Shown: positions 4,122-22,766, counted from the stretch's first letter. The stretch is DNA of 64,000 nucleotides from an uncultured delta proteobacterium (GCA_963745025.1 CAVUWD010000011.1:320001-384000), one strand, 5' to 3'. Notes: generated by a model not told the origin, from the letters alone. Numbers and translations are program-made.

Positions 4122-4194
4122 GCGCGGGCGGCGCGCCGCTTGACGCCGCCGTTCGATTGGATTTGTGTTCCCCCTGGGTTAGAGATTCGGCGTC

Positions 4195-5337
4195 TTGAGC
4201 AGATCCTCTCCGGCCAATCACGTCCGGCGCATCCGTCCCATGGCGCTGGAGGCGCGCCTTGCGGGACCGCTCACCGTCGCCCTTCGTTCGGACGACCGAG
4301 CGGTGGCGGAGTGGCTCATCGAATTCCTCCATCCGTGGTTCGTGCCCACCGCGGGAGCCGCCGAGATTCAGGTTTCGGTGTCGAGCGCGGAAGGTGCGTA
4401 CGCCGAGCTCGACGTTCGGCGCCCACTCGACGCGGCTCCCCGCGCCTGTTTTGCCTTGGATCAACAGGTGGTCTCACTGCCCGCCTGGTCCACCGAGGAA
4501 GGCATAACGGTCGCGGACCCGAGGCGCTCGTGCTTTCTCGTCCTAGCCCCACGCCAGATCGCCCTCTTCGGCGACCCGACCACGCGACGGTGGCGGTTCA
4601 CCCTGCAGCTCGTCTTCCATGAAATCGCAGCCACCCGGGCGCGCCGCACGGACCTCGATCTCCATGCCGCCGCCATCGAAGCCGGCGGCCGTGCAGTCGT
4701 GATCGTCGGCCCCAAGCGCGCCGGCAAGACGACGCTATCTTTCCACCTCTTGCGCTCGGAGCGCTGCCGTTGGATCGCCAACGACCGCGCGTTCGTCGGA
4801 AACGCCGGTAGGGCGGCGTTCACGATTCGCGGGATGCCCACGGCGGTGAAGATCCAGCCGCCGATGCTCCATGAGTTTCCCGAGCTGCGGCGAGGGCTCC
4901 GCAACGTGGAGCGGCCGTATCTCCACGCCGTCAACGAGGTCGCCGGCGCAAGCCTCGGCGAAGAGCTCGACGGGTCGGTCGAATTCGCGTTGAGCCCGGC
5001 GCAGCTCGCGCGGCAGTTGAAGGTGGAGCCGCTGGCCTCGGCGCCGTTGGCCGCGATCGTCTTTCCGCAGATCCGCCCCGAGACGGCTGGCTTCGCCGTC
5101 GAGCGGCTCGACACGGCGGAGGTGAGCGCCGGAATCTGGGCGAACCTCTACGGCAAGCCTTCCGGCCGGCACGAGCCGACCCTGTTCGAGGAGCTCGACG
5201 GTGGGACGCGCGCTTCGCGGCGAAGCCTGGCGGATGCGCTCTCGGAAATCGTTCCCGGCTACCGCGTCGTTCTCGGCCGCGACGCCTACGCCGCGCCCGA
5301 CTTCGCCGTGCGGTTGCTGGAAACCGTCCTGCCGTGA
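4195..5337 (+). CDS. HPr kinase-like P-loop kinase
   Basis: LHAAAIEAGGRAVVIVGPKRAGKTTL (His plus Walker A) and WIANDR, typical of HPrK-related kinases. Start TTG 4195 (also kept in copy B) or ATG 4240. Confidence 0.75.
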   Translation: MSRSSPANHVRRIRPMALEARLAGPLTVALRSDDRAVAEWLIEFLHPWFVPTAGAAEIQVSVSSAEGAYAELDVRRPLDAAPRACFALDQQVVSLPAWSTEEGITVADPRRSCFLVLAPRQIALFGDPTTRRWRFTLQLVFHEIAATRARRTDLDLHAAAIEAGGRAVVIVGPKRAGKTTLSFHLLRSERCRWIANDRAFVGNAGRAAFTIRGMPTAVKIQPPMLHEFPELRRGLRNVERPYLHAVNEVAGASLGEELDGSVEFALSPAQLARQLKVEPLASAPLAAIVFPQIRPETAGFAVERLDTAEVSAGIWANLYGKPSGRHEPTLFEELDGGTRASRRSLADALSEIVPGYRVVLGRDAYAAPDFAVRLLETVLP

Positions 5338-6200
5338 CGATCCCAGGCCCGCCCGAGGTATCGCGAGACGTCGAGGAAGCGCTCGATCGACACGGCCTGC
5401 GCCCGCGGCGAATCGAGCTCGTCTCGCCGCTGCGCGAGCGGAAGGGGATCCGCTTTGCGTACCGGGTGGATGCCGACGACGGCCGAAGCATCAAGGCGCG
5501 ACACTTCGGAGCCCCCGAGGACGCGCGCCGCCACTTCGAGCTGCGCGCCGGCCTGGAAGCGGCCTTCGCGCCGGCGCTAGCCAACTACGGGTCCGTGGTC
5601 CTCGAGGAGTGGGTCGAGGGCGCGGCGCTCACCGAGCTCGACGCGGACGCTCGGGCCGAAGAGGCCGGAGCGTTGCTCGGACGGCTGCACGCCCGGTCGC
5701 TCGGTCCGGAAGTTCCCTCCGTGATCCGTACCCGGAAGTGGATCGAGGGCGCCGAGTCGGACCTCGCGATCCTCACGAGCGCCGGCGCGCTCGCGCCCGA
5801 CGAAGCGGTTCGTCTGCGAGCCGAGATCCGTCGACGCGATCCGCGGTCGGCCCGAACGGCCCTCATCCACCTCGACTTCTGCGTCGAGAACATGCTGATC
5901 GATCCGCGAGGTGAGCTGCGAATCATCGATAACGAGTTGCTCGCCATCAATCCGGCGGGCCTCGATCTCGGACGCACCTTCCACCGCTGGCCGATGCCGG
6001 AGGCGACGTGGGGCCGCTTCCTCCGCGGCTACCGTTCCTCGGCCCCGAGCGAGCCGGAAGCGACCGGGTTTTGGAAGATCGTCGCGGCCCTGACGGGCAC
6101 GAGAGTGTTCCTTCAGCGAATGCCGGCGCGCGTCGATGCGTCTGTCGCGCTGCTTCGCCGCTTCGCCGAGGGCGAGAGCCTCGCGGATCCGCTGCCGTGA
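5334..6200 (+). CDS. Aminoglycoside phosphotransferase (APH)/choline kinase-like phosphotransferase
   Basis: VLEEWVEG, LGRLH, Brenner motif HLDFCVENML, IIDNE; GTGA overlap with the upstream gene. Confidence 0.8.
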   Translation: MTIPGPPEVSRDVEEALDRHGLRPRRIELVSPLRERKGIRFAYRVDADDGRSIKARHFGAPEDARRHFELRAGLEAAFAPALANYGSVVLEEWVEGAALTELDADARAEEAGALLGRLHARSLGPEVPSVIRTRKWIEGAESDLAILTSAGALAPDEAVRLRAEIRRRDPRSARTALIHLDFCVENMLIDPRGELRIIDNELLAINPAGLDLGRTFHRWPMPEATWGRFLRGYRSSAPSEPEATGFWKIVAALTGTRVFLQRMPARVDASVALLRRFAEGESLADPLP

Positions 6201-6862
6201 CCGAATCCATCGTGGTCGTCTGCATGGGTGGGATCGGCCACGTGCAGATCCTCCTGCCGGTGATTTCCGGGCTTGCCTCTCGCGGCCGCGTCGTGCACGT
6301 GATGACCCGCAGCGACTTCCGGACCCAGGTCGAGGGCGCGGGCGCGCGGTTCGTCGACCTCTACGCGCACCGTCCGCTCGACGCGGTGGACGCGACGTCG
6401 ATTCCCTTCCCGAGCCGCTTCGTCACCTTCGCCGCGATGTACGACGAAAGCCTGTCCGATGAGATCGGCGCGCTCGCACCTGCCTTGATCGTCTACGATA
6501 CCTTCACGCTCGCGGGCCCGGTGGCGGCGCGGCGGCTCGGCATCCCGTACGTCAACGTCTGCCCGAACCACGCGCCGGTTCCGGCTCGCATGATCGAGGC
6601 ATTGCGGCGGGACCCGCGGGTAGCCGTTTCCGCCGAGTGCCATGCGGCCGTGAAGCGCCTGCAGGAAGTTCACGGGATGAGCGGCGCCAATCCGTTTTCG
6701 TACTACGAGGCGTTGAGCCCCTACTTGAACGTGTACGGCGAGCCCGCGGAGTTCCTCGACCCGGACGAGCGCGCAGCCCTCGCCCCAATCGCATTCTTCG
6801 GGTCGCTTCTGCCGCCCGTGCGGCGAGACGGCGCCATCGCCGGAGCATTTCCCCGCGGCCGC
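6197..6862 (+). pseudogene. Truncated GT1 (MGT/UDP-glycosyltransferase), N-terminal half only
   Basis: Paralogous to 14019-15236 up to GAFPR, then similarity stops. The donor-binding C-terminal domain is absent. Confidence 0.85.
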
Positions 6863-7006
6863 CGCGGTGCCATCGCCCCCCTCGGCGGCCGCTCTCGGCG
6901 CACCATCCCCCTAACGGCCCAAACGTGGAAAGCCGCGCCCGGCGCGGAGTTCCCCTCCCCTACCCCGCGAAATTGTTAGCCGATTCCCCTCGCGTGGAAA
7001 TTCAGG

Positions 7007-7279
7007 CTAGCCGAGCGCGGAGCCCTTCCCCGCTCGATTCATGACGAGATCCGCCAACAGCTCGACGGTATCCATGCGACCGACGCGAATGTCCTCGGGC
7101 TCGAGGGTGAACGAGAACTGCTCCTCGAGGAAGGTGACGAGTTCGAGCATCGACACCGACGTCATGACTCCGCTGCTGATGAGCAACGTCGAGTCCTGGA
7201 GCGTTTCCGCTGCTTCGCCCAGGAGGAAGTTGGCGAGGATGAAGGAACGAATCGTTTGCCGAATTTCCTCGCGCGTCAT
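7007..7279 (-). CDS. Acyl/peptidyl carrier protein (intact copy)
   Basis: 90 aa, acidic; LISSGVMTSVSMLELVTFLEEQF (variant of the GxxDS phosphopantetheine site). Confidence 0.85.
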   Translation of the reverse strand: MTREEIRQTIRSFILANFLLGEAAETLQDSTLLISSGVMTSVSMLELVTFLEEQFSFTLEPEDIRVGRMDTVELLADLVMNRAGKGSALG

Positions 7280-7339
7280 CGCCGATCACCCGTTGCCGTT
7301 CGAACGCCGCAGGAAGCTAGTTCTGCGACCTGCATCCTG

Positions 7340-7670
7340 TCAACGCTTCCACCAGTCCGGGCGGAGCCCCTTCACGAGAGAGGACATCGCCACCTCGACT
7401 TCGTCTTTGATGTGCTCCGGCACCTCGAAGGTTCACGTCCTCGTCGATTCGTCGCGCGTGGCCCGTTGGCGCCTCGCGGCACCGTTCGCCGCTCCGGCGA
7501 TCCAGGAAGTGGCGATCCCCGCGGGTCTGCTCGTGGCTATGCGCCCATGCACGATCGATTTCCGCATCATGCGACCGCGCTCGCCCGCGTCCCTCGGGCT
7601 GAGCGCAGACCAGAGGCTGCTCGGCATCCATTTGAGCTCGCTTCGCCTCCGCCCGGGCCCCGTTGCGTAG
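7340..7670. pseudogene. Deletion junction relic: Rieske oxygenase 3' end (minus strand) fused to nucleotidyltransferase 3' end (plus strand)
   Basis: 7340-7428 matches 17122-17209 and 7431-7670 matches 19858-20097. About 2.65 kb is missing at a CTCGA microhomology. Confidence 0.9.
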
Positions 7671-7687
7671 TCGGGCTCCACGGCGCT

Positions 7688-8227
7688 ATGCGGACGAGCA
7701 TGGGCCAGGGGATGCTTCGAGGAAAAGTCGCCATCGTGACCGGGGCGGGCAGCCCGATCGGCACGGGCCATGCGATGGCGCTCGCGCTGGCGCGGGCGGG
7801 AGCGCGCGTGGCGTTGCTGGATCTCAACCGAGAGTGGCTCGCACAAAATTTCTGGGAAGTGCCCGTGGCCGCCTGGGACCGGGCTACGGGCCGTCCAAGG
7901 CCGGGCATGAAGCTCTCGTCGCCCTCATGGCACACGAGCTCGAAGGCAGCGGCGTGACGGCGAACGTCCTGGTCCCCGGCGGTCCGACCAACACCAACTT
8001 CTTCGCCGCCGAGGCGAAGGTCGATCGGGCCGCCCTCATTCAACCCGAGGTCATGCAGGCGCCGGCAGTCTGGCTCGCTTCCGATGCCTCACGTGACGTC
8101 AACGGCCGACGCATCATCGCGTACTACTGGGATGAAAATCTGCCGCTCGGAGAGCGGCTCACCAAGGCAAGCGCGCCTGCGGCCTGGCCGCAGCTCGGCG
8201 AGCAGGCGAGTCACCCCACGCCCGTGA
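7688..8227 (+). pseudogene. SDR oxidoreductase relic with two internal deletions
   Basis: Matches 20115-20972 but lacks ~20274-20459 (in frame) and 20497-20629 (133 nt, out of frame). The NNAG segment is lost. Confidence 0.9.
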
Positions 8228-9567
8228 AGATCACCGACGCGGAAGTCGACCGGATTGCCCGAGCGCTCGGGGATGCACCCAGCGCGGCGTACACGACGCC
8301 GCACGTGTACCCGTGGGCCGTGCAGAACTTCGAATCGCGGCCGCTCGCCGAACGCCCGCAGCCGGCGAACGGCGATCTCCGACTCTACGTCCACATCCCC
8401 TTCTGCAACTACCGCTGTACGTTCTGCTTCTTCGCCGTGCGCGTCGGCGCCAAGCAGCGGGAAATGGAGCGGTACGTGGCCGCGCTCGAGCGAGAGCTCG
8501 AGTGGGTCGCGCCGGGGACCTCGCTCTCACAGTTGTTCATCGGCGGGGGCACGCCGACCTCTCTGCCCTCCGATCTTCTCGCGGCCCTTCTCGCCGCGAT
8601 CTTCGCGCGTATGACGTCATCCGGCGAGCGCCCTCACACCGTGGAGGCGTCCCCGGAATCGATCCGTGAGGCACACCTGCGCGCGCTGCAGGATCACGGC
8701 GTCGGCCGGGTGAGCATGGGCATCGAGAGCCTTGACGACGCGGTGTTGGACGCCGTGCGCCGCCGCCACAGCCCCGCCCAGACGCTCGAGGCGTGCCGGA
8801 TGGTCGTGGAGAGCGGCGTCGCCTTGAACGTCGACCTCATCTACGGCCTTCCCGGTCAGACGGAGGCGAGCTTCCAGCGCGATCTCGAAGCGGTCGCCGC
8901 CGCTGGGGTTCACTCGCTCTGCTTGTACGTCTTGCGACTCAACGAGCACACGCCGGTCGCAGCGCGGCTCGCCGCCGAGGAGCGACTCGACCTGAAGCGG
9001 CTGATGCGCTGGCGCGCGTTCGTGACCCGCGCCGCCGAGGAGCTCGGATTCGAGCAGACGCGTTGCTTCATGTTTGAGCGCCGTCCCACGACCCGGCCGG
9101 AGCAGTCGCCGACCTCCGCGGCCGCCGGCACGGTCGACCAACTCGGCATCGGCATGAGCGCACGCTCCCAGCTCGGCGACGTCGTCTATCGCAACCACGA
9201 GCGATCTGAAACCTACCTGCAGCGGGTGGAGCGGAGCCTGAGCCCCGTCGAGACGGTGTTCCACCTGGACGTCGCCGACCGCAAGACGCAGTTCGTCGCG
9301 GGCTCCCTCGGTTGCGGCAAAGCGCTCTCGCGCGTCGCCTACGAGCACGCGTTCGGCGCTTCGATCGACACCGACTTCGGCGAGCTGCTCGAGCGCCTCC
9401 GCCACGCGGAGCTGATCGAGGACGACGGCGCGCGGGTCGTGCTGACCGAGCCGGGAAAGCTCGTCTACGACCGCGTGCTGCTCTGCTTCTACCCTGAGCG
9501 CGCCAAGCGGTGGCTGCGAGACTGGGCCGCCGGGCCGAGGGATCACCGCAGCGAGCCGCGACGGTGA
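8224..9567 (+). CDS. HemN-like radical SAM enzyme (copy A, intact)
   Basis: LYVHIPFCNYRCTFC (CxxxCxxC), FIGGGTP, TVEASP, RVSMGIES, NVDLIYGLPGQT. GTG start at 8224 by comparison with copy B. Confidence 0.9.
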   Translation: MKITDAEVDRIARALGDAPSAAYTTPHVYPWAVQNFESRPLAERPQPANGDLRLYVHIPFCNYRCTFCFFAVRVGAKQREMERYVAALERELEWVAPGTSLSQLFIGGGTPTSLPSDLLAALLAAIFARMTSSGERPHTVEASPESIREAHLRALQDHGVGRVSMGIESLDDAVLDAVRRRHSPAQTLEACRMVVESGVALNVDLIYGLPGQTEASFQRDLEAVAAAGVHSLCLYVLRLNEHTPVAARLAAEERLDLKRLMRWRAFVTRAAEELGFEQTRCFMFERRPTTRPEQSPTSAAAGTVDQLGIGMSARSQLGDVVYRNHERSETYLQRVERSLSPVETVFHLDVADRKTQFVAGSLGCGKALSRVAYEHAFGASIDTDFGELLERLRHAELIEDDGARVVLTEPGKLVYDRVLLCFYPERAKRWLRDWAAGPRDHRSEPRR

Positions 9568-9791: not shown

Positions 9792-9866
9792 TCTCCGCGT
9801 AGCGGGAGGAGAGGACAGGGTCGTTCTGTGGAGGAGCCCGTGGCGCAAGCGTGCTGCCGCTTCGCG

Positions 9867-11600
9867 ATGCGCGACCGGCTCCTCGCCGTCGCATCGTACA
9901 CGATCGTCGCGCTAGTCTGCCTCGCTCGGCTCGACGGCGTGTTCACGTTCCGCGACCTCACCTCGACCGACACGGAACTATACTACCGCGCCGCATCGAC
10001 GTGGCTCGGCCAAGGGCTCCTCACCGTCGATCGCGCGCCGCTATACGCGGTGCTTCTTGCCGTCGCGCGAATGGTGATCGACGACGCCACCATCGTCATT
10101 CCCGCTCACCGCGTAATCGCGGCGCTCGCGCTGGCTCTCGCCGGGCACGCGTTCTTCCGGCGCCTGTTCCCAGCCCCGATCGCGCTGGTGCTCGCGACAT
10201 GGGCTGCCTTAGTTCCCACGCAGTTCGACGGCCTCTATGAGGTTCATCTCGTCGGCGCCGCGGCTTGCGCGATCACCGCGTGGGTTGCGACGTACGGCGA
10301 GCGGCGAAGCGCTCGCGGCGCCGTCCTCGGGCTGCTGCTGATCTTCTCTCTCATCCGCTCCGAGCTCCTGGCGGCGGCGGTCGCCTGGGGGGCCGCTTGT
10401 GCCTTCTACGAGTTCCGCCTGCGGCGCTCGAACGGCGCGAGCCCCGGGTCCGTCCTCCTGCCCTTCCTGCTTCCCCCGCTCGCCTTGGCCGTCGTGCTCT
10501 CCATCACCTTCGCCGCCGGCGGGTGGGCACCGAGATTCCGCACGCCCAAGACCACGCGGCACTTCTGCAACGCCTACGCGCTTGGTGTCGCGGAGCGTGA
10601 GGGCCTGCCACGCCGCGCTACGTGGGTCGGATGCAAGCGAATCTTGCTGCGCGATTTCGGGCGCGCCGACGTGGGACCCTTCGGAGCACTGACGGCATCG
10701 CCGCGAGCGATGCTTGGCCACTTCGCCTGGAACCTCCGACTGCTGCCGGCCACGCTGGAGCTGCTACTGTGGGGAGCGACCGGGGCCGCCGAGGGCTCGG
10801 ATTACGTTCCGATACCCACGGGCTCGCTCGTGGCGCGCGGCGCGAGTGTCGTGCTCATCGCGCTCGTCGTCGCTGGTTCCATCCGCCTACGCCCGCCAAT
10901 CGACCCCCGCTTGGAGGCGCGCCGCCATTGGGGCTTCATCGGCCTCGGAGCGCTCCTCGCCACGTCGTTCGTCGTCTTGGTCGCCTCGCGAGCGCGCGCC
11001 CCGTATCTCGCGCCTGTCGGGATTGGCATGTTCGCACTCGTCGGCAGAGCACTCGAAGCGCTTTGGCCGGCGGCGCGCTCGAGACGGGCCGAACTCGCCG
11101 TGATCGGCCTCGTCCTCTGCGCGGTACCGTTCGTACCGGCTCGCTACGACGCAGCGTACCAAACACCCAACGATGCCCTCAATCAGGCGCCAGCATCCGA
11201 GGTTGGCGGGGGGCAGCCGACCGCGATCGCGGTGCGACGCCTCAACCGCAATCGCGACGAACTCGCTTCGGAGTCCGTGCGGCTCGCTGCGGCGCTCCGG
11301 CCGACGGCCCTTTGCTGCTACCTCTCCTCGAGCAAGGGAATCTGCGCCGGGGTACGGGTCGGTGCGCTGCTCACTATAGAAGATCCCGCGCTCCTCGATC
11401 GAGAGATCCGGAGGCTTGGAACCACGCACTTCTACGTCGACGAACGCCCGACCGCACGCGCGGCGAAGGAACTCGAGAGCGCCGGGCTCGGATGGACGAG
11501 GGTCGCGCCCGCGGACCGCCGCGAGCCATGGGTCCTCTTGCGCGCGGAGCCTCGCGCCCTCCAACGGGCCCCTGCAACGACACCGCTTCACACGGAGTGA
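9867..11600 (+). CDS. Polytopic membrane protein, GT-C/PMT-like
   Basis: About 11-12 hydrophobic segments, DTELY in the first loop, RAPLY, IRSE motif, soluble C-terminal domain. Confidence 0.55.
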   Translation: MRDRLLAVASYTIVALVCLARLDGVFTFRDLTSTDTELYYRAASTWLGQGLLTVDRAPLYAVLLAVARMVIDDATIVIPAHRVIAALALALAGHAFFRRLFPAPIALVLATWAALVPTQFDGLYEVHLVGAAACAITAWVATYGERRSARGAVLGLLLIFSLIRSELLAAAVAWGAACAFYEFRLRRSNGASPGSVLLPFLLPPLALAVVLSITFAAGGWAPRFRTPKTTRHFCNAYALGVAEREGLPRRATWVGCKRILLRDFGRADVGPFGALTASPRAMLGHFAWNLRLLPATLELLLWGATGAAEGSDYVPIPTGSLVARGASVVLIALVVAGSIRLRPPIDPRLEARRHWGFIGLGALLATSFVVLVASRARAPYLAPVGIGMFALVGRALEALWPAARSRRAELAVIGLVLCAVPFVPARYDAAYQTPNDALNQAPASEVGGGQPTAIAVRRLNRNRDELASESVRLAAALRPTALCCYLSSSKGICAGVRVGALLTIEDPALLDREIRRLGTTHFYVDERPTARAAKELESAGLGWTRVAPADRREPWVLLRAEPRALQRAPATTPLHTE

Positions 11601-11661
11601 TCTACCCGTAGTGCCGACGGAGATCCCAGCGAGCGCAGGCCCGATTCTGGATAGCCGCCCG

Positions 11662-13191: not shown

Positions 13192-13680
13192 CACGCTCGA
13201 GGCGCGCATGGGGCAGGTGCAGCAGCGGGGCAAAGCGCACTCGTGACCGCGTCTCTTAGCGTGCCCCCGCTGCGAGGGGGGTACGACGGTCGAGGGTCGC
13301 GGACATCGTCCCTCGTCTCCCGAGCGCTCTTCGCCGCGCGCTCTCGCTCAGGCGTCTCCCCCGAACGGTGTAGGCGTCCTTGATCAGTAGGAACCCGCTC
13401 GTCCGACCCTCCTCTTTGCTGTTTCCCAGGCAATTCGACTGGTCCATGTCCTGCATGATCCGAAGTAGCGATGACCGATCCCGCAGTTCAGCCAACAGTT
13501 AGAGACGGCGCGTCGAGGTCTCCGCCGGGCTTACGCAGTGTCGCTTCCGCGGTGGTGCGATAGACGTCCGGCTCTGATCGATCTCGACAAGCCGCGCTTT
13601 GCAACCGGTGCGCACGCTCGATCGCTCGATACCGCCGCTCGATTGGATTTGCGTTCCGCTTGAGTTAGAGATCGAGTGTC

Positions 13681-14022
13681 TTGAACAGATCTGCTTCTTC
13701 GCCGAACCATGGCCGGCGTGTCAGTCCCGTGGAGTTCGAGACGCAGCTCGCGGGACCCTTCACCGCCGCTCTTCGCTCGAACGACCGAGCAACAGCGGAG
13801 TGGCTCATCGAGTTCCTCCATTCGTGGTTCGTGCCCTCCGCGAGGGCGGGCGCGATCCAGGTGTCGGTTTCGAACGCGGAAGATTCTGATACCGAGCTCT
13901 CCGACGAGGTCGCCGGCGCATCGCGAGAGGTCGAGGACGTGCTCGATCGATACGTCGATGCCTCGGTTGCGTTGCTTCGCCGTTTCGCCGAGGGCAAGAG
14001 CCTCGCGTATCCGGTGCCATGA
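13681..14022 (+). pseudogene. In-frame mosaic relic of the HPrK-like and APH kinase genes
   Basis: Four segments matching 4195-4410, 4931-4950, 5361-5393 and 6131-6200, joined in a single open frame. Confidence 0.9.
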
Positions 14023-15236
14023 CCAGGTCCATCGTGGTCTTGTGCATGGGAGGGACCGGGCACGTGCAAGCCCTCCTCCCGTTGATTTCCGGGCTCGCCT
14101 CTCGCGGCTGCATCGTGCACGTGATGACCCGCGGCGACTTCCGCGCCCACGTCGAGGGAGTGGGTGCGCGCTTCGTCGATCTCTACGCACGCCGCCCGCT
14201 CGAGGCAGCGGATGCGACGTCGATGCCGTTCCCAAGCCGATTCGTCACCTTCGCCGCGACGTACGCCGAAAGCCTGGCCGAGGAGGTCGGCGCGCTCACC
14301 CCGGCATTGATCGTCTACGACACCTTCACGGTTGCAGGTCCGGTGGCGGCGCAGCGGCTCGGCATTCCGTATGTCAACTTCTGCTCGAACCACGCGCCGG
14401 TTCCGGCCCGCATGATCGCGGCCTTGAGGCGCGACCCCCGCGTCGCCATTTCCGCCGAGTGCCGCGCGGCCGTGCGGTGCCTCCGGGAAGTTCACGGGAT
14501 GAGTGGCGCCAATCCGTTTTCATACTACGAGGCGTTGAGTCCGTACTTGAACGTGTACGCGGAGCCGGAGGAGTTCCTCGAGCCAGACGAGCGCGCCGCC
14601 TTCGAGCCGATCGCCTTCTTCGGGTCGCTCCTGCCGCCGGCATCACGAAACGCCCCGGTTATCGGAGCGTTCCCGCGCAGCCGGGACGGAAGAAAAGTCT
14701 ACGTTTCGTTCGGCACGGGTGTCTGGCGGTATTTCGCAACCGTCGCCCTCGCCGCGTTGAAGGCCGTCTCCGATGCCCTTGCGAACCACGATGCGGCCGT
14801 CCTCGTGAGTCTTGGCGGGAGCGACGTCGCGGCGGATGCCCGCGGCGAGCTCGTACGGTCGAACGTCCGCATCGTCGACTACGCCGATCAGTGGGCGGCG
14901 CTCGAGGAGGCCGACCTCTTCATCACCCACCACGGAACCAACTCGACCCACGAATCGATCTTCCACGAAGTTCCCATGCTCTCGTACCCCTTCTTCGGCG
15001 ATCAACCGGCGCTCGCTCGGCGCTGCCAGGAGCTCGGCCTGGCCGTTCCGCTGACTGCCGAGCCGCAAACCCCGGTCACCCCCGAAGCGCTGCTCGCGGC
15101 GTTGCGGCGGGTCGCCGACGAGCAAGACCGCTTTGCGGCCCGCTTATCCGAGGCGCGGTCGTGGGAGCTTCGTACGATCGCCGATCGCGGAGCCGTCCTC
15201 GATCGCATCCTCTCGTGCACTTCGGCGTCCGCTTGA
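14019..15236 (+). CDS. GT1 glycosyltransferase (MGT/UDP-glucuronosyltransferase family), intact
   Basis: GGTGHV, VYVSFGT, DYADQWAALEEADLFITHHGTNSTHES...PFFGDQ (PSPG-like box). Confidence 0.92.
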   Translation: MTRSIVVLCMGGTGHVQALLPLISGLASRGCIVHVMTRGDFRAHVEGVGARFVDLYARRPLEAADATSMPFPSRFVTFAATYAESLAEEVGALTPALIVYDTFTVAGPVAAQRLGIPYVNFCSNHAPVPARMIAALRRDPRVAISAECRAAVRCLREVHGMSGANPFSYYEALSPYLNVYAEPEEFLEPDERAAFEPIAFFGSLLPPASRNAPVIGAFPRSRDGRKVYVSFGTGVWRYFATVALAALKAVSDALANHDAAVLVSLGGSDVAADARGELVRSNVRIVDYADQWAALEEADLFITHHGTNSTHESIFHEVPMLSYPFFGDQPALARRCQELGLAVPLTAEPQTPVTPEALLAALRRVADEQDRFAARLSEARSWELRTIADRGAVLDRILSCTSASA

Positions 15237-15242
15237 GCTCGA

Positions 15243-16778
15243 TCACTGCGCCGGAGTCTCCCGGCGAAGCCTCTCGAAGTCGATCTTGCCCCTCGAGGTT
15301 CGGGGAAGCGCAGCGTGGAACGCGAAGCGCTCCGGGATCATGTAGGGCGGGAGCTTCACGGCGCAGAACTCCTTCAGCTCGACCACCGAGACGCGCGTAC
15401 CGCTCACGTGGGCCACGAGCTCGAGCCCACGCGAACCGTCGACCGCGACCACGACGGCTTCCTTGATCGCCGGGTGCTCGTAGAGGCGCGTCTCGATCTC
15501 GCCGGGCTCGACGCGATAGCCGCGGAGCTTCACCATGCGCCCGATGCGCCCGGCGTAGCGGAGGTCGCCGGTCGGCAGCTCGACCACCAGGTCGCCGGTG
15601 CGATACCACGGCAGCCCTCCGTCCGCGGCCGGGAGCAGGCGCTCGGCGTTCAGCGCGGGCTGATTCAGATATCCGGTCGTCAGACCCTCGCCGCGGAGTT
15701 GGAGCTCGCCGATCGTTCCCGCGGAAACGACCTCGCCCTGGACTCCGACGACGCGCGCTTCGTAGTGCTCGGACGGGCGGCCGATCGGAGGAGGACCGTC
15801 GAACTCCGCGTCGCGAGGAATCTCGTAGTAGGTGGCGATGTTCGTCTCGGTCGATCCCCAGCAATTGAAGTAACGGGGGTGGGGAAGCCGGCGTCGAAGC
15901 GTCGTCAAGTGGGGCGCCGGAAACACCTCGCCGCCGAACACAACGAGCCGAAGGGCGGAGAGATCGCGTGACTCCAGATCGTCGAGCGCGGCGATCCGCG
16001 ACAGGATCGAGGGAGTCGCGAACAAGATCGTCACTCGCTCCCGGCTGATCAGATCGACAACGTGCCGCGCGAACTGGCGAACCTCGTCGGGAACCAAGAC
16101 CAGCGGCGCGCCGCAGGTCGAGCTCGAGTAGATGTCGAACAGCGACATGGCGAAGTGAAACGGCGCATGGTTGGCGAACACGTCGCGCTCGCCGATTCCG
16201 AACAGGCGATGGCTCCACCGCGCGAACGCGGCGATCGCCGCTCGGCTCATCATCCACCCCTTGTGACGGCCGGTGGTGCCCGACGTGTAGAGAATACAGG
16301 CGATCCCGGACTGCGCGGACGCGCGCTTCGCCCGAAGCTCGGGAGCGAACTCGGCAGGGTCGGGCGCCCACTCGCGGATGGCGCGCCCCAGCCCCACGGA
16401 CGCGATCGGATGGACGTCGACCGATCCGCCGAGCCGCTGCGTCGCCTGCCGATATCCCGCCTCGAAGCGCTCCTCGACGATCGTCAGGCGCACGCCGCAG
16501 TCGGTGTGAATTTCGGCATTGCGCTCGACCGGAGCCCCGGGGTCGACGGGCACATAGGTGCAACCGGCGCGAAGCGTTCCCAGCATCGCGGCGATCGCGT
16601 CGCACGAGCGACGGACGTAGAGACCGATGCGGGCGCCCGGCTCGACGTCCAGCCGACACAATCGAGCGGCGACGCCATCCGCGAGTCGATCGAGATCCGC
16701 GTACGAGACGCTTCCGCGCCCCGGTTCGATCACCGCGGGCCGACCGTCCGCCGCTGCGAGCGAGCCGAGACGGGTCAT
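15243..16778 (-). CDS. Stand-alone NRPS-type/DltA-like adenylation enzyme
   Basis: YVPVDP, ILYTSGTTGRHKG, NCWGSTE, GELQLRGEGLTTGYLN, YRTGD, KLRGYRVEPGEIE, LPPYMIP, RGKID. Confidence 0.92.
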   Translation of the reverse strand: MTRLGSLAAADGRPAVIEPGRGSVSYADLDRLADGVAARLCRLDVEPGARIGLYVRRSCDAIAAMLGTLRAGCTYVPVDPGAPVERNAEIHTDCGVRLTIVEERFEAGYRQATQRLGGSVDVHPIASVGLGRAIREWAPDPAEFAPELRAKRASAQSGIACILYTSGTTGRHKGWMMSRAAIAAFARWSHRLFGIGERDVFANHAPFHFAMSLFDIYSSSTCGAPLVLVPDEVRQFARHVVDLISRERVTILFATPSILSRIAALDDLESRDLSALRLVVFGGEVFPAPHLTTLRRRLPHPRYFNCWGSTETNIATYYEIPRDAEFDGPPPIGRPSEHYEARVVGVQGEVVSAGTIGELQLRGEGLTTGYLNQPALNAERLLPAADGGLPWYRTGDLVVELPTGDLRYAGRIGRMVKLRGYRVEPGEIETRLYEHPAIKEAVVVAVDGSRGLELVAHVSGTRVSVVELKEFCAVKLPPYMIPERFAFHAALPRTSRGKIDFERLRRETPAQ

Positions 16779-16787
16779 CCGTGGCGG

Positions 16788-17061
16788 CTAGCCGAGCGCG
16801 GAGCCCTTCCCCGCTCGACTCATGACGAGATCGGCCAACAGCTCGACGGTATCCATGCGACCGACGCGAATGTCCTCGGGCTCGAGGGTCAACGAGAACT
16901 CGCTCCTCGAGGAAGGTGACGAGCTCGAGCATCGACACCGACGTCATGACTCCGCTGCTGATGAGCAACGTCGAGTCCTGGAGCGTTTCCACTGCTTCGC
17001 CCGGGAGGAAGTTGGCGAGGATGAAGGAGCGAATCGTTTGCCGAATTTCCTCGCGCGTCAT
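16788..17061 (-). CDS. Carrier protein (copy B) with a +1 frameshift near 16900, probably a sequencing error
   Basis: Near-identical to 7007-7279 with one extra base. Confidence 0.8.
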
Positions 17062-17121
17062 CACCGATCACCCGTTGCCGTTCGAACGCCGCAGGAAGCT
17101 AGTTCTGCGACCTGCATCCTG

Positions 17122-18438
17122 TCAACGCTTCCACCAGTCCGGGCGGAGCCCCTTCACGAGCGCGGACATCGCCAGCTCGACTTCGTCTTGATGTGCTCCG
17201 GCACCTCGACGGGAAGAAAGGCGCGGAACATCACGTCCTCGTCTCCGGTCAGTCCCGGCAGCCCCTCGCCTCGCACGCCGTATCCCTTGCGCGCGCCCGG
17301 CAGGGTGATCTTGCGGTTCTTCTGCGGATCGCGAATCACGCCTTGCGGATCGCCTCCCGCGGCGACGATTCTCGCTTGCTCGAGCAGCTTCTCGCGAAAC
17401 ATGATGATGCCCCGGTCCGTCTCGCCGAGGTGCTCCCGGGTTCGATCGACGAGCGGGCCCGGCCCGAGCCAGCTCGCGTAGTCCTGGCTCACGAGGTGGC
17501 TGCCGAAGTCCTCGGTCGGTCCCGCTTCCGGCTCGAGGCTCGCGTGCTTGCGGTAGACGGGGACGCGCTCCTGCTCGACCCTCGGCTTCGGCGGGATCAT
17601 CACCTGCCCGTAGCGGCGTCTTCCAGCTGGTGATCGTCAGTCGATACACCATGATCGTCCGTGCATCGTCGACCGGAACGACCCAGGTCAGATACCAGCC
17701 TTGCCCGCCCGCGCCGTCGACGTTCGGAAACAGCACCGTTCGATCCGCCAGCCATCGATCGGAGCCTTCGAGCTTTCGCTGGAAGACCACCCCGTACTCG
17801 AAGTCCAGCCAGCGAAACGCGGTGTGACGCGGACGCCGGGCCGGAACCTCGCGGCCATGGAGGCGATAGGACCAGCGATCGTGAAGCCACTCGATGTGGA
17901 CGGGATCGTAGAAGCCTTCCATGACCTGAACCCAGTTGCAGGGCAGGTGCAAGAAGGAGACGACCGTGTACCCCGGGCTGTAGAAGCCCGCCCAGTCGGG
18001 CAGCAACGAGGCGGGGTCGGGACCGAGGTACGCCCACAGGAGCCCCGCCTTCGCCTGCACCGGATAGGCGCGCGTGCGGATTCGCTCCTTGAACGTCGGT
18101 TCCCGGATTCACCGTCTCTTCGAACGGCTGCTCGAGACAGCGGCCCGCCTCGTCGAAGCGCCAGCCGTGGTAGCTGCAACGGATCCCGCATTCCTCGACC
18201 ATCCCGTACGAGAGGTCGAACTGGCGATGCGGGCAGCGGCGCTCGAGCAGACCGTAGGTGCCACGCTTGTCCCGGTAGAGGACGAGATCCTCGCCGAGCA
18301 CTCGCACCGGGCCGGATCGGCCGTCTCGGCGAGCTCGTCGACCGCCGCGATCGGCATCCAGTAGCGCCGCAGAAGCTCGCCGACGGGAGTGCCCGCGCCG
18401 ACCTGCGACAGCGTCTTGGCGTCCTCTCGATTGAGCAT
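17122..18438 (-). CDS. Rieske non-heme iron oxygenase alpha subunit (phthalate dioxygenase/LigX-like), several frameshifts
   Basis: VGAGTPVGELLRRYWMP, CPHRQFDLSYG...CSYHGW (Rieske site), NWVQVMEGFYDPVHIEWLH (mononuclear Fe site), EHLGETDRGII. Confidence 0.88.
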
Positions 18439-18467
18439 TGCGCCTCTTACCATAGCCTCCGCCACAA

Positions 18468-20097
18468 GTGTTGCCGCAGCCCCACCAGGAGCTCTTGCTC
18501 AAGGCGGTACTCGCCCCAGGCGACGAAGCGGTCCGCCGCTGGAAGGCATGGCGAGCCGCCAACGACCCCGAGGCGAGTCGAGCGCACAAGTCGCCGCCTG
18601 TTCCCGTCGCGTACCGCAACCTGCGCGACGCTGGGCTCTCGGACCGCGATCTCGCGCTGCTCCGCGAAGCGTACGAGGAGAGCCAGACGAAGATGCACGG
18701 GAAGCTCGCCGCCGCTCGACCCGTGCTGGAAGCCCTCGTCGCAGCAGGGGTCGACCCGCTCGTCCTCAAAGGAGCCGCGCTGACACGATTTTACGCGGGT
18801 GACCCGGCGCTCCGGCCTATGCGGGACGTCGACGTGCTCGTGCCCCCGAGCCAAGTCGAGCGAGCGATCGCGACGCTCTCGGCTCTCGGCTACGAGCCGG
18901 CGGCGGGCATGGCCCTCTCGTGCCTCGCCCGATGCGCGTTCCGGGCCGGTCCGGGCTGGTTGTTCGTCGCTCCGAACGCTCCGGACGTGGACCTGCACTG
19001 GCATGCGCTGCACGAATCCCGCCAGCCGGATGCGGACGACGACTTTTGGCAAGGCGCGATCTCTCTCGACTTCCAGGGCATGAAGGTCAAGGCGATGAAC
19101 GCGACCGACCAGCTTCTCCACGTTTGCGTTCACGGCCTGCAGCGCGAGCTGAGGGAGAACCTCCGCTGGATCGTCGACGCAATCATGATCCTGCGGCACG
19201 AAGCGGAGCCGATCGATTGGCAGCGGCTGCTGGCGCAAGTCGTCGCGGCGTCGTCTGGTACTGCAAGCCCGGTACTGCTTTCAGTATCTGGCCGGGACCT
19301 TCGCGGCTCCGATCCCGCAGCAGGCGCTGGAGCAGCTCCGACGCGCGCGGGTCTCGTGGCTCGAGTGGATGGAGTTTCGCGCGCGGCTCCGCCCCGAGCC
19401 GCGCGGAGCGTTTGCGCAAGCGGTCCTCGCCCACCAACAAGAGGTGCGCCGGGGAGGCAATGCATCGCCCCGGGCGTTTTGCCGCTCGCTGCCGCGCCAT
19501 CTCTGGGGCGCAGCGCGGTGGTGGCAGATGCCCGCCTGGACCGTGCTGGATCGGTTGGGTCTCGATCTCCGCCCGGGCACGACGATGGCGCGCTCCGTCT
19601 TCACGGCTCCGCGCGAGCCCGAGACCCCGATCGCACCACCGGCCTACGAGGTCGGCCAGCGGCTCGTCTTCGGCCGTAACGGTAACGGCCTCCCGGCGCT
19701 ATGCTCCGGATGGTCTTATGCCGAGTCGGTTGGCGTTTGGAGCGAGGGAATCATCGCTCGGTTGGAGTTCGTCCTGCGAGAGCTTTCCGAGGGTCCCTTG
19801 CAGTTGGAAATCGAGCTCGCCGCCGCGATGGTCGGCGAGTCCCATCCGACGCTCGATGTTCACGTCCTCGTCGATTCGTCGCGCGTGGCCCGTTGGCGCC
19901 TCGCGGCACCGTTCGCCGCTCCGGCGATCCAGGAAGTGGCGATCCCCGCGGGTCTGCTCGTGGCTATGCGCCCATGCACGATCGATTTCCGCATCATGCG
20001 ACCGCGCTCGCCCGCGTCCCTCGGGCTGAGCGGAGACCAGAGGCTGCTCGGCATCCATTTGAGCTCGCTTCGCCTCCGCCCGGGCCCCGTTGCGTAG
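18468..20097 (+). CDS. Nucleotidyltransferase (NTP_transf_5-like) with a C-terminal beta-sandwich domain; frameshift near 19250
   Basis: LVLKGAAL...LRPMRDVDVLV, VDLHW, LLHVCVHG, LRWIVD; C-terminal GWSYAESVGVWSEG...DQRLLGI. Confidence 0.82.
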
Positions 20098-20114
20098 TCG
20101 GGCTCCACGGCGCT

Positions 20115-20972
20115 ATGCGGACGAGCATGGGCCAGGGGATGCTTCGAGGAAAAGTCGCCATCGTGACCGGGGCGGGCAGCCCGATCGGCACGGGCCATGC
20201 GATGGCGCTCGCGCTGGTGCGGGCGGGGGCGCGCGTGGCGTTGCTGGATCTCAACCAGGAATGGCTCGCACGAAGCCTCCGGGAGATCGAAGAGGTCGGC
20301 GGCAGCGGCTCAGCCGTGGCGATCGTAACCGACGTTTCGGACGCCGACGCGGCGGAACGGGCGGTCGACCGCACGATCGCGGAGCTCGGCGGCCTCCACG
20401 TACTCGTCAACAACGCCGGCACCACTCCGCGCGCAAGCGGCTTCAGCACCACCAGCCTGAATTTCTGGGAAGTGCCCGTGGCCGCCTGGGACCGGGTGGT
20501 CGCCGTCAACTTCAGCGGCGCGTTCTACATGGCCCGGGCGGTAGCGGGGCATCTGCTGGCGCAGGGCTGGGGTCGGATCATCGGCGTGACCACGAGCATG
20601 GACACGATGTATCGCAAGCGCGCATCGCCCTACGGGCCGTCCAAGGCCGGGCATGAAGCTCTCGTCGCCCTCATGGCACACGAGCTCGAAGGCAGCGGCG
20701 TGACGGCGAACGTCCTGGTCCCCGGCGGTCCGACCAACACCAACTTCTTCGCCGCCGATGCGAAGGTCGATCGGGCCGCCCTCATTCAACCCGAGGTCAT
20801 GCAAGCGCCGGCAGTCTGGCTCGCCTCCGATGCTTCACAGGCGTTCAACGGCCGACGCATCATCGCGTACTACTGGAACGAGACTCTGCCGCTCGGAGAG
20901 CGGCTCACCAAGGCAAGCGCGCCTGCGGCCTGGCCGCAGCTCGGCGAGCAGGCGATCACCCCACGCCCGTGA
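20115..20972 (+). CDS. SDR family oxidoreductase
   Basis: GKVAIVTGAGSPIGTG, LVNNAG, YGPSK (YxxxK), ANVLVPGG. Confidence 0.92.
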   Translation: MRTSMGQGMLRGKVAIVTGAGSPIGTGHAMALALVRAGARVALLDLNQEWLARSLREIEEVGGSGSAVAIVTDVSDADAAERAVDRTIAELGGLHVLVNNAGTTPRASGFSTTSLNFWEVPVAAWDRVVAVNFSGAFYMARAVAGHLLAQGWGRIIGVTTSMDTMYRKRASPYGPSKAGHEALVALMAHELEGSGVTANVLVPGGPTNTNFFAADAKVDRAALIQPEVMQAPAVWLASDASQAFNGRRIIAYYWNETLPLGERLTKASAPAAWPQLGEQAITPRP

Positions 20973-22330
20973 AGATCACCAACGCGGAAGTCGACCGGAT
21001 TGCCCGAGCGCTCGGGGATGCACCCAGCGCGGCGTACACGACGCCGCACGTGTACCCGTGGGCCGTGCAGAACTTCGAATCGCGGCCGCTCGCCGAACGC
21101 CCACAGCCGGCGACCGGCGATCTCCGACTCTACGTCCACATCCCCTTCTGCAACTACCGCTGTACGTTCTGCTTCTTCGCCGTGCGCGTCGGCGCCAAGC
21201 AGCGGGAAATGGAGCGGTACGTGGCCGCGCTCGAGCGAGAGCTCGAGTGGGTGGCGTCGGGGACCTCGCTCTCACAGTTGTTCATCGGCGGGGGCACGCC
21301 GACCTCTCTGCCCTCCGATCTTCTCGCGGCCCTTCTCGCCGCGATCTTCGCGCGTATGACGTCGTCCGCTGAGCGCCCTCACACCGTGGAGGCGTCCCCG
21401 GAATCGATCCGTGAGGTACACCTGCGCGCGCTGCAGGATCACGGCGTCGGCCGGGTGAGCATGGGCATCGAGAGCCTTGACGACGCGGTGTTGGACGCCG
21501 TGCGCCGCCGCCACAGCCCCGCCCAGGCGCTCGATGCATGTCGACTGGTCGTGGACAGTGGCCTGCTCCTGAACATCGACCTAATCTACGGCCTTCCCGG
21601 TCAGACGGAGGCGAGCTTCCAGCGCGATCTCGAAGCGGTCGCCGCCGCTGGGGTTCACTCGCTCTGCTTGTACGTCTTGCGACTCAACGAGCACACGCCG
21701 GTCGCAGCGCGGCTCGCCGCCGAGGAGCGACTCGACCTAAAGCGGCTGATGCGCTGGCGCGCGTTCGTGACCCGCGCCGCCGAAGAGCTGGGATTCGAGC
21801 AGACGCGTTGCTTCATGTTTGAGCGCCGTCCCACGACCCGGCCGGAGCAGTCGCCGACCTCCGCGGCCGCCGGCACGGTCGACCAACTCGGCATCGGCAT
21901 GAGCGCGCGCTCCCAGCTCGGGAACGTGGTCTACCGCAACCACGAGCGGTGTGAAACGTACTTGCAGCGGATGGAACGAGGCCTGAGCCCCGTCGAGACG
22001 GTGTTCCACCTGGACGTCGCCGACCGCAAGACGCAGTTCGTCGCGGGCTCCCTCGGTTGCGGCAAGGCGCTCTCGCGCGTCGCCTACGAGCACGCGTTCG
22101 GCGCTTCGATCGACACCGACTTCGGCGAGCTGCTCGAGCGCCTCCGCCACGCGGAGCTGATCGAGGACGACGGCGCACGGGTCGTGCTGACCGAGCCGGG
22201 AAAGCTCGTCTACGACCGCGTGCTGCTCTGCTTCTACCCTGAGCGCGCCAAGCGGTGGCTGCGAGACTGGGCCGCCATGCCGAAGGTTCATCGCAGCGGC
22301 TCGGGGCGAGCCTCGGGTCTCGCCGGCTAG
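20969..22330 (+). CDS. HemN-like radical SAM enzyme (copy B, intact)
   Basis: CNYRCTFC, GGGTP, NIDLIYGLPGQT, LGIGMSARSQL; GTGA-coupled to the SDR. Confidence 0.9.
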   Translation: MKITNAEVDRIARALGDAPSAAYTTPHVYPWAVQNFESRPLAERPQPATGDLRLYVHIPFCNYRCTFCFFAVRVGAKQREMERYVAALERELEWVASGTSLSQLFIGGGTPTSLPSDLLAALLAAIFARMTSSAERPHTVEASPESIREVHLRALQDHGVGRVSMGIESLDDAVLDAVRRRHSPAQALDACRLVVDSGLLLNIDLIYGLPGQTEASFQRDLEAVAAAGVHSLCLYVLRLNEHTPVAARLAAEERLDLKRLMRWRAFVTRAAEELGFEQTRCFMFERRPTTRPEQSPTSAAAGTVDQLGIGMSARSQLGNVVYRNHERCETYLQRMERGLSPVETVFHLDVADRKTQFVAGSLGCGKALSRVAYEHAFGASIDTDFGELLERLRHAELIEDDGARVVLTEPGKLVYDRVLLCFYPERAKRWLRDWAAMPKVHRSGSGRASGLAG

Positions 22331-22690: not shown

Positions 22691-22766
22691 GTCTGCCGCC
22701 CGGTTAGCAAATGATCGGCAACCCTTCTTGTGGCCATCGCATTCTCGGCATCTCGCACGCGCTCAC

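Follow-up and report, generated by a model that had tools for sequence, protein, structure and literature searches.

A gene cluster with two unlike kinases at its core in an uncultured delta proteobacterium: a candidate tailoring or biosynthesis system in decay

What is made where two unlike kinases, a glycosyltransferase and the enzymes of a small carrier-protein branch are encoded side by side, and can the organism that carries the genes still make it? The question is raised by a stretch of 64,000 nucleotides (G000:C11:320001-384000; hereafter the window, with positions counted from its first base) that has a GC content of about 66% and belongs to a 5.6-Mb metagenome-assembled genome (MAG) of an uncultured delta proteobacterium, 92.65% complete with 7.6% contamination. 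Between positions 4137 and 22330 it carries, in two partial copies, genes for a kinase related to HPr kinase (the HPrK-like kinase), a kinase of the APH fold, a GT1 glycosyltransferase, a stand-alone adenylation (A) enzyme of the non-ribosomal peptide synthetase (NRPS) type, a carrier protein (CP), a Rieske non-haem oxygenase, an NTP_transf_5 nucleotidyltransferase, a short-chain dehydrogenase/reductase (SDR) and a HemN-like radical S-adenosylmethionine (rSAM) enzyme. An earlier note on this DNA had listed these genes in two copies, and self-blastn, Pfam and NCBIfam searches find them where it placed them. The cluster is read here, with somewhat better than even confidence, as an uncharacterised, lineage-restricted tailoring or biosynthesis system that has decayed in this genome.

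Ancestral order and the two partial copies

Comparison with relatives shows the order of the ancestral single copy: HPrK-like kinase > APH kinase > GT1 >< A < CP < Rieske <> nucleotidyltransferase-CBM > SDR > HemN-like rSAM, where CBM marks a domain fused to the nucleotidyltransferase that resembles carbohydrate-binding modules. The earlier note had obtained this order by merging the two copies, and it proves to be a real one, since the metagenome contig L069 holds it as an intact single copy through the nucleotidyltransferase and the genome G007 holds it intact without that gene. L069 is 96.6-97.7% identical to the window flanks and the left part of the first copy, with zero gaps over 6031 aligned bases (blastn). 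Its one copy runs cytidylate-kinase-like gene, HPrK-like kinase, APH, GT1, A(-), CP(-), Rieske(-), nucleotidyltransferase and is intact throughout, with a Rieske protein of 440 amino acids (aa) and a nucleotidyltransferase fusion of 543 aa; only the first ~30 codons of the SDR gene are kept, and the SDR and rSAM genes are deleted. In G007 (locus L143, 9808-18481), which belongs to another or a sister genus, the kinase, APH, GT1, A, CP, Rieske, SDR and rSAM genes are full-length in one block at 76-89% aa identity, in the order HPrK-like kinase > APH > GT1 >< A < CP < Rieske <> SDR > rSAM. The nucleotidyltransferase fusion of G007 lies alone on a separate contig, and the intact G007 cluster thereby departs from the gene set of the earlier note. 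A long open frame in G007 had suggested a CP-A fusion, which was rejected because the upstream part of the frame is not a carrier protein.

The sister species G001 retains the kinase, an APH remnant, a frameshifted GT1, the nucleotidyltransferase fusion (541 aa), SDR, rSAM and the first of two membrane proteins described below, and is without A, CP and Rieske. The metagenome lineage L067/L068 is more distant (56% nucleotidyltransferase identity) and has genes for a methyltransferase, an NMT1-like protein, a GT-B glycosyltransferase, rSAM, kinase, APH, the nucleotidyltransferase fusion and a GT-C protein with PMT_2 and PA14 domains. In L068 a 381-aa GT-B-like protein (1871-3016, minus strand), with a homologue in L158, stands in place of GT1; along its whole length it matches the (hydroxymethyl)cytosylglucuronate synthase model (E 1e-17, 64 bits vs a cut-off of 300), and it shows no significant similarity to the GT1 of the second copy (BLASTP). 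That the genes form a functional cluster, as had been supposed, is borne out by homologues that stand together in matching order elsewhere, in L069, in G007 and in the loci of the class treated below.

Copy A occupies 4137-9567 of the window and copy B 13623-22330, and each is without material that is present in the other. Self-blastn finds six collinear segments in common at 78-100% identity: 4137-4410 with 13623-13899 (78%), 6131-6816 with 13953-14638 (86%), 7005-7431 with 16786-17212 (97%), 7431-7847 with 19858-20274 (98%), 7847-7883 with 20460-20496 (100%) and 7884-9553 with 20630-22298 (96%). Against L069, the match of copy A ends at 6867 within GT1 (blastn), where short-read contigs of the runs X1 and X4 also cease matching, resumes at CP (7005) and at 7431 skips ahead to the final 80 nucleotidyltransferase codons; in copy B the match covers ~70 kinase codons and is then continuous from the 3' end of APH to the rSAM gene.

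Copy A opens with the two core genes, both intact on the plus strand, for the P-loop kinase of PEPCK/HPrK type (4195..5337; PEPCK, phosphoenolpyruvate (PEP) carboxykinase) and the APH-fold kinase (5334..6200; Pfam APH 49 bits). GT1-A (6197..6979, plus) is truncated after ~224 codons and gives only N-terminal GT1 matches in Pfam. An intact 90-aa carrier protein follows on the minus strand (7007..7279; PP-binding E 0.007; 97% aa identity to L069), and then junction debris (7285..7883) that consists of the Rieske 3' end, the last ~80 codons of the nucleotidyltransferase C-domain (residues 462-541 match window 7428-7667) and SDR N-terminal pieces with two internal deletions, seen as an adh_short remnant in the open reading frame (ORF) 7256-7954. 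The copy closes with an SDR C-terminal remnant fused to rSAM-A in one open frame (7663..9567, plus; 96% nucleotide identity to copy B), in which adh_short_C2 is matched in its C-terminal part only (25.9 bits vs a cut-off of 27), Radical_SAM reaches 101 bits and HemN_C, at 23.3 bits, falls just under the Pfam cut-off of 24; the rSAM part, from ~8223, looks whole.

Copy B begins on the plus strand with a remnant in which the promoter region and ~70 codons from the start of the HPrK-like gene survive (13623..13903), the remainder of that kinase and most of APH being deleted. Intact genes follow for GT1-B (14019..15236, plus; 405 aa) and the A enzyme (15243..16778, minus; 511 aa; AMP-binding 249 bits; 98% aa identity to L069). 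The CP gene of this copy (16788..17064, minus) is frameshifted by one extra base at 16901, the Rieske gene (17154..18440, minus) is broken into pieces in three frames by five single-base indels, and the nucleotidyltransferase fusion (18468..20097, plus) is frameshifted at 19245. SDR-B (20115..20972, plus; adh_short 139 bits; 89% aa identity to G001) has its TGxxxG and YxxxK motifs and is apparently intact, and rSAM-B (20969..22330, plus; 453 aa) is intact. The start/stop overlaps remarked on in the earlier note were read directly as GTGA at 5334-5337 (kinase/APH), 6197-6200 (APH/GT1) and 20969-20972 (SDR/rSAM).

Both copies are incomplete, and in G000 as assembled the Rieske and nucleotidyltransferase genes survive nowhere in intact form; no second Rieske copy was found in G000 at E <= 1e-40, nor a second full copy of the nucleotidyltransferase fusion. 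What G000 holds intact is the kinase, APH, CP-A, GT1-B, A, SDR-B and one or two rSAM genes. Since the Rieske and nucleotidyltransferase genes are damaged in copy A and copy B alike, the pathway of nine enzymes that had been ascribed to this organism is a reconstruction, which the organism need not be able to run. The locus is a partial tandem duplication that later lost pieces, and the cluster is probably not working in this genome. To the earlier description are added the truncation of GT1-A, the frameshifts in CP-B, Rieske and nucleotidyltransferase, the fusion domain of the latter and membrane proteins that match no family.

Relative to intact orthologues the single-base indels lie at 16901 in CP-B, at 17188, 17613, 18098, 18309 and 18323 in Rieske and at 19245 in the nucleotidyltransferase, and despite them 15153-18450 of copy B is 96-98.7% identical to L069. 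The six frameshifting indels of CP-B and Rieske are crowded into 1.5 kb of 96-98% identity to L069, with none in 6 kb of flank. Because the flanks are free of indels and most of the indel sites are not homopolymers, consensus error is the less likely cause. The public sequencing runs offer a further view; at most 31% of the sampled words was present in any one run, and contig pieces were examined from four of them. The unshifted state of L069 is present at 16901 and 17187 in contigs from three unrelated short-read runs (X1, X3 and X4 lack the extra base at 16901), at 17613 in contigs from two of the three and at some further sites in one. From run X3, a 7.8-kb short-read contig of another sample joins window 3314, at the start of the cytidylate-kinase-like gene, to 21837, at the end of rSAM, and comes from a related population without the entire cluster. 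Taken with L069 and G001, this contig shows repeated deletion at the locus, an indel hotspot.

An assembly artefact, in which strain variants were joined in series, the indels were consensus errors and a single intact cluster were the true state, is regarded as unlikely. The single copies of the relatives would suit such a joining, but the copies are 3.4 kb apart and the unique membrane-protein genes that separate them also stand beside the cluster in G001. An identity of 78-100% that varies by segment is what mixed haplotypes in a MAG with 7.6% contamination might give, yet each copy has deletions of its own with clean breakpoints, and zero gaps to L069 over the 6031 bases of flanks and left copy A bespeak a low indel error rate. 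Among the contig pieces listed from the four runs none bridges a copy junction, so that these neither confirm nor refute the assembly; pieces of run X2 identical to 6414-6575, specific to copy A, and to 14497-14660, specific to copy B, have depths of 3.4 and 3.3, which is weak evidence for both copies.

On the right flank a di-haem oxidoreductase gene (window 22689-24325) is 85.6% identical to L069, vs ~97% for its neighbours, and L069 carries an extra SDR gene (11832-12620) that is absent from the window. Both differences suggest that the right flank, too, has recombined. On the left, the cytidylate-kinase-like gene (PF13189; 3264..4121, plus; Pfam 111 bits; 96% aa identity to L069) was not found beside the HPrK homologues of 20 other loci, and because it is common to L069 only, it probably lies outside the conserved cluster.

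The kinase pair across the class

Which of these genes belong together more widely was read from the genomes of the host's class, its taxonomic order having 8 species genomes available. In a 401-genome sample of the class a kinase homologue was found at E <= 1e-30 in 27 genomes (a tally that includes G473), and 20 of the 31 places, from 18 genomes, were taken as loci, leaving out G000, G001, G473 and eight weaker hits. The counts that follow are by tblastn unless stated and are lower bounds, many contigs being short, and kin among the genomes are not independent. An APH-fold kinase adjoins the HPrK-like kinase in 19 of the 20 loci, the twentieth contig ending at the kinase, and a GT1 of the same type is present in 12. 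NTP_transf_5 was found by profile search in 7 loci, the HemN-like rSAM in 6, Rieske in 4, the carrier protein in 2 and the A enzyme in a single one. The invariant core across the class shown by these sequence counts is thus the pair of HPrK-like and APH kinases, with GT1 usually next to it and the remaining genes as interchangeable accessories. The carrier-protein module, which the earlier note had set at the heart of the system, loses that place to the conserved kinase pair and GT1, since just 1, 2 and 4 of the loci have A, CP and Rieske, respectively.

The neighbours vary. Pfam scans of 11 loci found a Wzx-type flippase (Polysacc_synt_3) in L151, L157 and L160, an O-methyltransferase with a zinc-dependent alcohol dehydrogenase (Zn-ADH) in L151 and L152, GT28- or GT2-type transferases in L157 and L160, AcrB/OEP in L157 and MFS proteins in L156 and L158. 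Directly upstream of the kinase-APH-GT1 trio of L148 (G544:C95, 6608-9914) lie genes for lipid A-type and PlsC-type acyltransferases and a B12-binding radical SAM protein, which hints at a lipid acceptor. L156 (G600:C55, 6450-14825) has the kinase pair and NTP_transf_5 beside Asn-synthase-family, Sulfotransfer_4, LGT-like and MFS genes, and two of its stretches, 11759-11998 and 12663-12815, resemble residues 26-106 of the kinase N-domain; it could be a lasso-like or an exopolysaccharide-like variant.

Beyond the class, a profile of the HPrK-like kinase found no match at E <= 1e-15 among 300 additional genomes of a phylum sample, mostly of other classes. More than 240 homologues of the kinase were found, all of them unnamed or 'hypothetical'. 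NTP_transf_5 proteins occur widely in the class, in 100 of 401 genomes (a tally that includes G473, G634 and G662), whereas the fusion of nucleotidyltransferase and CBM-like domain was found only in G000, G001, G007, a small number of metagenome contigs and certain distant MAGs that have none of the other genes. For G298, the only other genome of the 300-genome phylum sample with a Rieske homologue, no A, CP or Rieske neighbours were found.

The enzymes and their characterised relatives

The HPrK-like kinase matches HprK_rel_B (TIGR04355) at E 2.3e-10, with 40.2 bits vs a cut-off of 200 (NCBIfam), and gives no Pfam Hpr_kinase match even at E <= 10. It has the P-loop GPKRAGKTT, its neighbour cluster in the Atlas is named HprK-related kinase B and hints at relatives in Actinomycetota and Pseudomonadota, and homologues carry a precomputed PF27840 annotation. 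In Foldseek searches its AlphaFold2 (AF2) model (pLDDT 91.7), taken whole with the N-terminal domain included, is matched best by PEP carboxykinases (E 7e-9; query TM-score (TMq) up to 0.49), enzymes in whose fold superfamily HPr kinase is also placed. The N-terminal domain models as PEPCK-like and appears unlike the winged-helix RiPP recognition element (RRE) that binds peptides (RiPP, ribosomally synthesised and post-translationally modified peptide). For the APH-fold kinase no sequence match was found in the Protein Data Bank (PDB) at E <= 0.01.

Two different kinases encoded together recall the fosfomycin kinases FomA and FomB, and the L068 orthologue of the HPrK-like kinase weakly matches the FomB model (26 bits vs 400). 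FomB is HPrK-related and phosphorylates an existing phosphate; its partner has the amino-acid-kinase fold, in contrast to the APH fold here, where there are no phosphonate genes either. A further parallel is offered by lasso peptide clusters, and on this the earlier note had already remarked. In pseudomycoidin, PsmK adds a variable number of phosphates to the C-terminal serine and PsmN is required for a hexose on the phosphate (PMC6993621). No other pair of an HPrK-related kinase and an NTP_transf_5 protein is known to have been characterised. The likeness to PsmK/PsmN and to PadeK of paeninodin lies in an HPrK-related P-loop kinase encoded with a DxD nucleotidyltransferase. The differences are several: the kinase here is paired with an APH-fold kinase and usually a GT1, the nucleotidyltransferase has a CBM-like domain and is dispensable for the integrity of the cluster in G007, and Pfam scans of 24 main and 102 further ORFs (E <= 0.01 and 0.001) found no precursor, cyclase, protease or RRE. 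By its gene content the locus falls outside the lasso clusters, with which it has the HPrK-related kinase and its NTP_transf_5 neighbour in common.

That scan took in the main ORFs and 102 of the 103 remaining ones of >=60 aa that overlap 4100-22400, the 103rd (3264-4118) being already covered among the main ORFs. In the ORFs scanned there was no Pfam match at E <= 0.001 for condensation, ketosynthase, thioesterase, MBOAT, PqqD or Asn-synthase domains, and the sole extra match from the 102 was the SDR N-terminal remnant; the earlier statement that condensation, ketosynthase, thioesterase, MBOAT, PqqD/RRE and lasso cyclase genes are absent is upheld. PADLOC defence models gave no match on the cluster beyond two weak ones to rSAM.

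GT1-B scores 52.6 bits with UDPGT (Pfam), and MGT is its best family, at 129 bits vs a cut-off of 260 (NCBIfam). Its sequence matches in the PDB are YjiC, OleD/OleI, Kcn28, CalG and a sterol glycosyltransferase, which makes it a UDP-glycosyltransferase of the small-molecule type. OleD/OleI, YjiC and MGT are the nearest solved relatives, with a full-length GT-B match and the donor motif HHGxxS/T...E in common. GT1 here differs from MGT in its low score and in being translationally coupled to two kinases, a coupling that to our knowledge is not found in MGTs.

The A enzyme exceeds the cut-off of TIGR01733 (327 bits vs 317.4) and has the A3 motif YTSGTTGRHKG and the A10 lysine. Its FHFAMS aligns with FSFDGS and IFDIS of the two A domains of LgrA, which puts Ala at the position of Asp235. 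In A domains for amino acids Asp235 binds the alpha-amino group of the substrate. Because Ala replaces it, the enzyme, a member of the fold, probably has a substrate other than an alpha-amino acid, and a carboxylic acid without an alpha-amino group would fit. Of the claim that an acid is loaded on the carrier protein, the acid substrate is therefore reasonable and the order of the chemical steps stays conjectural. A free A enzyme of NRPS type beside a free carrier protein of ~90 aa is also the arrangement of PltF/PltL, DltA/DltC and CytC1, and the PDB matches include a PltF-type proline ligase, CytC1 and DltA. Here, in contrast to these cassettes, Asp235 is replaced and the partner is a phthalate-dioxygenase-type Rieske enzyme rather than a flavoprotein, halogenase or MBOAT, with no thioesterase or condensation enzyme. 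D-alanylation of the Dlt type finds no support, with DltA models at 210-225 bits vs cut-offs of 476-560 and no match to MBOAT (DltB) or DltD.

Carrier protein copy A is below the cut-offs of both PP-binding (17 bits) and ACP_for_OlsHI (E 1.2e-20; ACP, acyl carrier protein). The latter match had suggested a link to the ornithine-lipid enzymes OlsH/OlsI, which was dropped, as there are no OlsH/OlsI genes and passages of the paper on them describe no need for an ACP.

The Rieske domain with its CxH...CxxH motif is present, together with the motif for mononuclear iron, in the L069 orthologue (Rieske 73 bits plus LigXa_C), and the window gene has no intact frame. The PDB matches of the orthologue, 7fjl and 7fhr (E 7e-49), are of the phthalate-dioxygenase type, and no reductase partner is encoded in the cluster.

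The nucleotidyltransferase scores 136 bits with NTP_transf_5 (PF14907; cut-off 31.2), has the DxD motif in DVDVLV and is a fusion of 541-545 aa with a C-terminal beta-sandwich domain. In a model with pLDDT 80.7 the N-terminal part resembles MenT1, LnuA and ANT(2'')-Ia and the sandwich CBM36, CBM6 and CBM35. In two further genomes of the class the CBM-like C-terminal domain also occurs, at G673:C13:531280-532152 and G458:C30:74731-75174, once in tandem, inside far longer frames of 1045 and 813 aa.

In rSAM-B both Radical_SAM (96.5 bits) and HemN_C (24.1 bits) are above cut-off, and CNYRCTFC supplies the CxxxCxxC motif. Its best PDB matches are HemN (E 1e-26) and NocN (E 1e-19). Domains and motif are those it has in common with HemN, ChuW/HutW and NocN/NosN, and at this level of sequence it is assigned to the HemN-like class C enzymes; unlike these, it remains below every curated equivalog cut-off, with 218.6 bits vs 380 for STM4012 (NF006067; 199 bits for the L068 orthologue) and 169 bits for ChuW/HutW, so that membership of the STM4012 family is not indicated.

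Between the copies lie genes for two polytopic membrane proteins, both on the plus strand, the first (9828..11600) with 9 hydrophobic segments and the second (~11662..13191) with 8. Neither matches Pfam or NCBIfam even at E <= 10, and the two show no significant similarity to each other (BLASTP). Membrane protein 1 has language-model feature matches of 0.98-0.99 in the Atlas to RgtA/B/C/D-like and PMT_2-bearing clusters and a 79% aa orthologue beside the cluster in G001; in membrane protein 2 WRDEAW stands opposite WFDEAQ of the L067 PMT_2 protein in a marginal BLASTP alignment (E 0.022). The polytopic proteins named by the earlier note are thus present, and its description of them as GT-C-like is kept as a lead, as no family matches. 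GT-C-like genes stand beside the cluster in the window, G001 and L067/L068, and none was found in L069 or, by tblastn, in the 20 class loci.

Neither this gene combination nor the HprK-related kinase B family was found described in the literature searched, and no fitting characterised pathway emerged there or from the family searches, in keeping with the earlier statement that the combination is not a recognised one. The parts are rated as familiar enzyme families and the combination as an orphan tailoring or biosynthetic cluster.

Proposed function and rival readings

The best reading of the core is a cytoplasmic cassette for phosphorylation and then glycosylation of a small hydroxylated acceptor, probably lipophilic or acyl, that is exported or displayed. 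It is read as a small-molecule cassette because the lasso machinery is absent, a second kinase of the APH fold is coupled to the first and a GT1 of small-molecule type is usual. The two kinases would phosphorylate a hydroxyl of the acceptor and might build more than one phosphate, by analogy with PsmK on its peptide serine; GT1 would then add a sugar, as might the nucleotidyltransferase where present, in the manner of PsmN. In the window's own family the acceptor or its acyl part may be made from a carboxylic acid other than an alpha-amino acid, which the A enzyme would load on the carrier protein, the Rieske enzyme hydroxylate, the SDR reduce or oxidise and the HemN-like rSAM enzyme methylate or modify by another radical reaction. 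In related families methyltransferases, dehydrogenases and other glycosyltransferases may take the place of the carrier-protein branch. That Wzx-type flippases, RND/MFS exporters and GT-C-like proteins are found nearby in different genomes suggests that the product leaves the cytoplasm or decorates the envelope. A bolder version, put forward tentatively and held to be doubtful, makes the trio an undescribed route in which a phosphate or diphosphate bridge is set on a small lipid-like or acyl acceptor and capped with a sugar, PsmK/PsmN-like chemistry acting on a metabolite or envelope lipid that Wzx-like or GT-C-like proteins would flip or transfer to the surface.

Several points weigh against these proposals. 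No locus examined has all nine genes intact: L069 is without SDR and rSAM, the G007 cluster without the nucleotidyltransferase, and G001 without APH, A, CP and Rieske and with a frameshifted GT1. Consensus errors of a long-read MAG could, in principle, account for the frameshifts of the window. In 8 of the 20 class loci the kinase-kinase-GT1 trio alone is found among homologues of the window cluster (tblastn), and since it occurs alone there, its target may be some common cellular or foreign molecule, with no dedicated scaffold; the loci were moreover chosen around the kinase, so that the counts are not independent of kinship. The neighbours that point to export or the envelope differ from locus to locus, and for 9828-13191 a GT-C identity is a lead from sequence likeness. 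The idea of a diphosphate leans on the weak FomB match of the L068 kinase (26 bits vs a cut-off of 400) and the analogy to a peptide kinase, and whatever is said of product, substrate and the order of the chemical steps is conjecture from the genes.

The trio could also be a cassette for inactivating antibiotics or other xenobiotics, in which the kinase pair, a macrolide-type GT1 and an ANT/Lnu-like nucleotidyltransferase would phosphorylate, glycosylate or nucleotidylate a hydroxylated compound that enters the cell, and the A-CP-Rieske-SDR-rSAM genes would be unrelated neighbours. The APH fold of one kinase and MGT as the best family of GT1, with OleD/OleI among its PDB matches, would agree with this, but the scores with resistance families are far under curated cut-offs (129 vs 260 for MGT; APH(3') at E 2.5e-4 for the L068 protein). 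The likeness of the nucleotidyltransferase domain to LnuA and ANT(2'')-Ia is a further point in favour, as are the 8 of 20 loci where, by tblastn, the trio has no other window-cluster gene for company; in many loci, however, the trio is accompanied by rSAM, Rieske, methyltransferases or flippases in operon-like order with GTGA overlaps, and we know of no role for an extra PEPCK-like kinase in known inactivation systems. Inactivation is accordingly thought improbable. Still less credit is given to RiPP-like peptide tailoring, with the HPrK-like kinase acting on a C-terminal serine and the nucleotidyltransferase and GT1 glycosylating it. The pairing of HPrK-like kinase and NTP_transf_5 is the one characterised in pseudomycoidin, and L156 sets the kinase pair and NTP_transf_5 beside an Asn-synthase-family gene and a sulfotransferase; set against these are the absence of Asn_synthase, a transglutaminase-type protease, PqqD/RRE or another maturase among 126 ORFs of 3264-24263, gaps of 55-75 bp in L069 that leave no conserved intergenic room for a precursor, an N-terminal kinase domain that models as PEPCK-like rather than winged-helix RRE, and the small-molecule type of GT1.

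If the phosphorylation-then-glycosylation reading is right, the core trio would tailor small molecules or envelope lipids by a new logic, a double kinase followed by glycosyl transfer, and a widespread kinase family of more than 240 unnamed homologues would receive its first function. The host class consists of uncultured soil and sediment bacteria without studied chemistry. Intact versions lie in the G007 locus and on the L069 contig rather than in this window.

Elsewhere in the window, 3-3192 and 43746-48330 hold several hydantoinase/oxoprolinase A and B genes. The pair at 43746-45757 has overlapping frames, and 43850-44080 repeats at 46211-46435 (69%); the stretch may be another frameshifted or duplicated locus. 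At 54619-56526 (minus strand) a 635-aa protein with a phage-integrase N-terminal SAM-like domain is encoded, and a mobile element may thus be present in the right part of the window.

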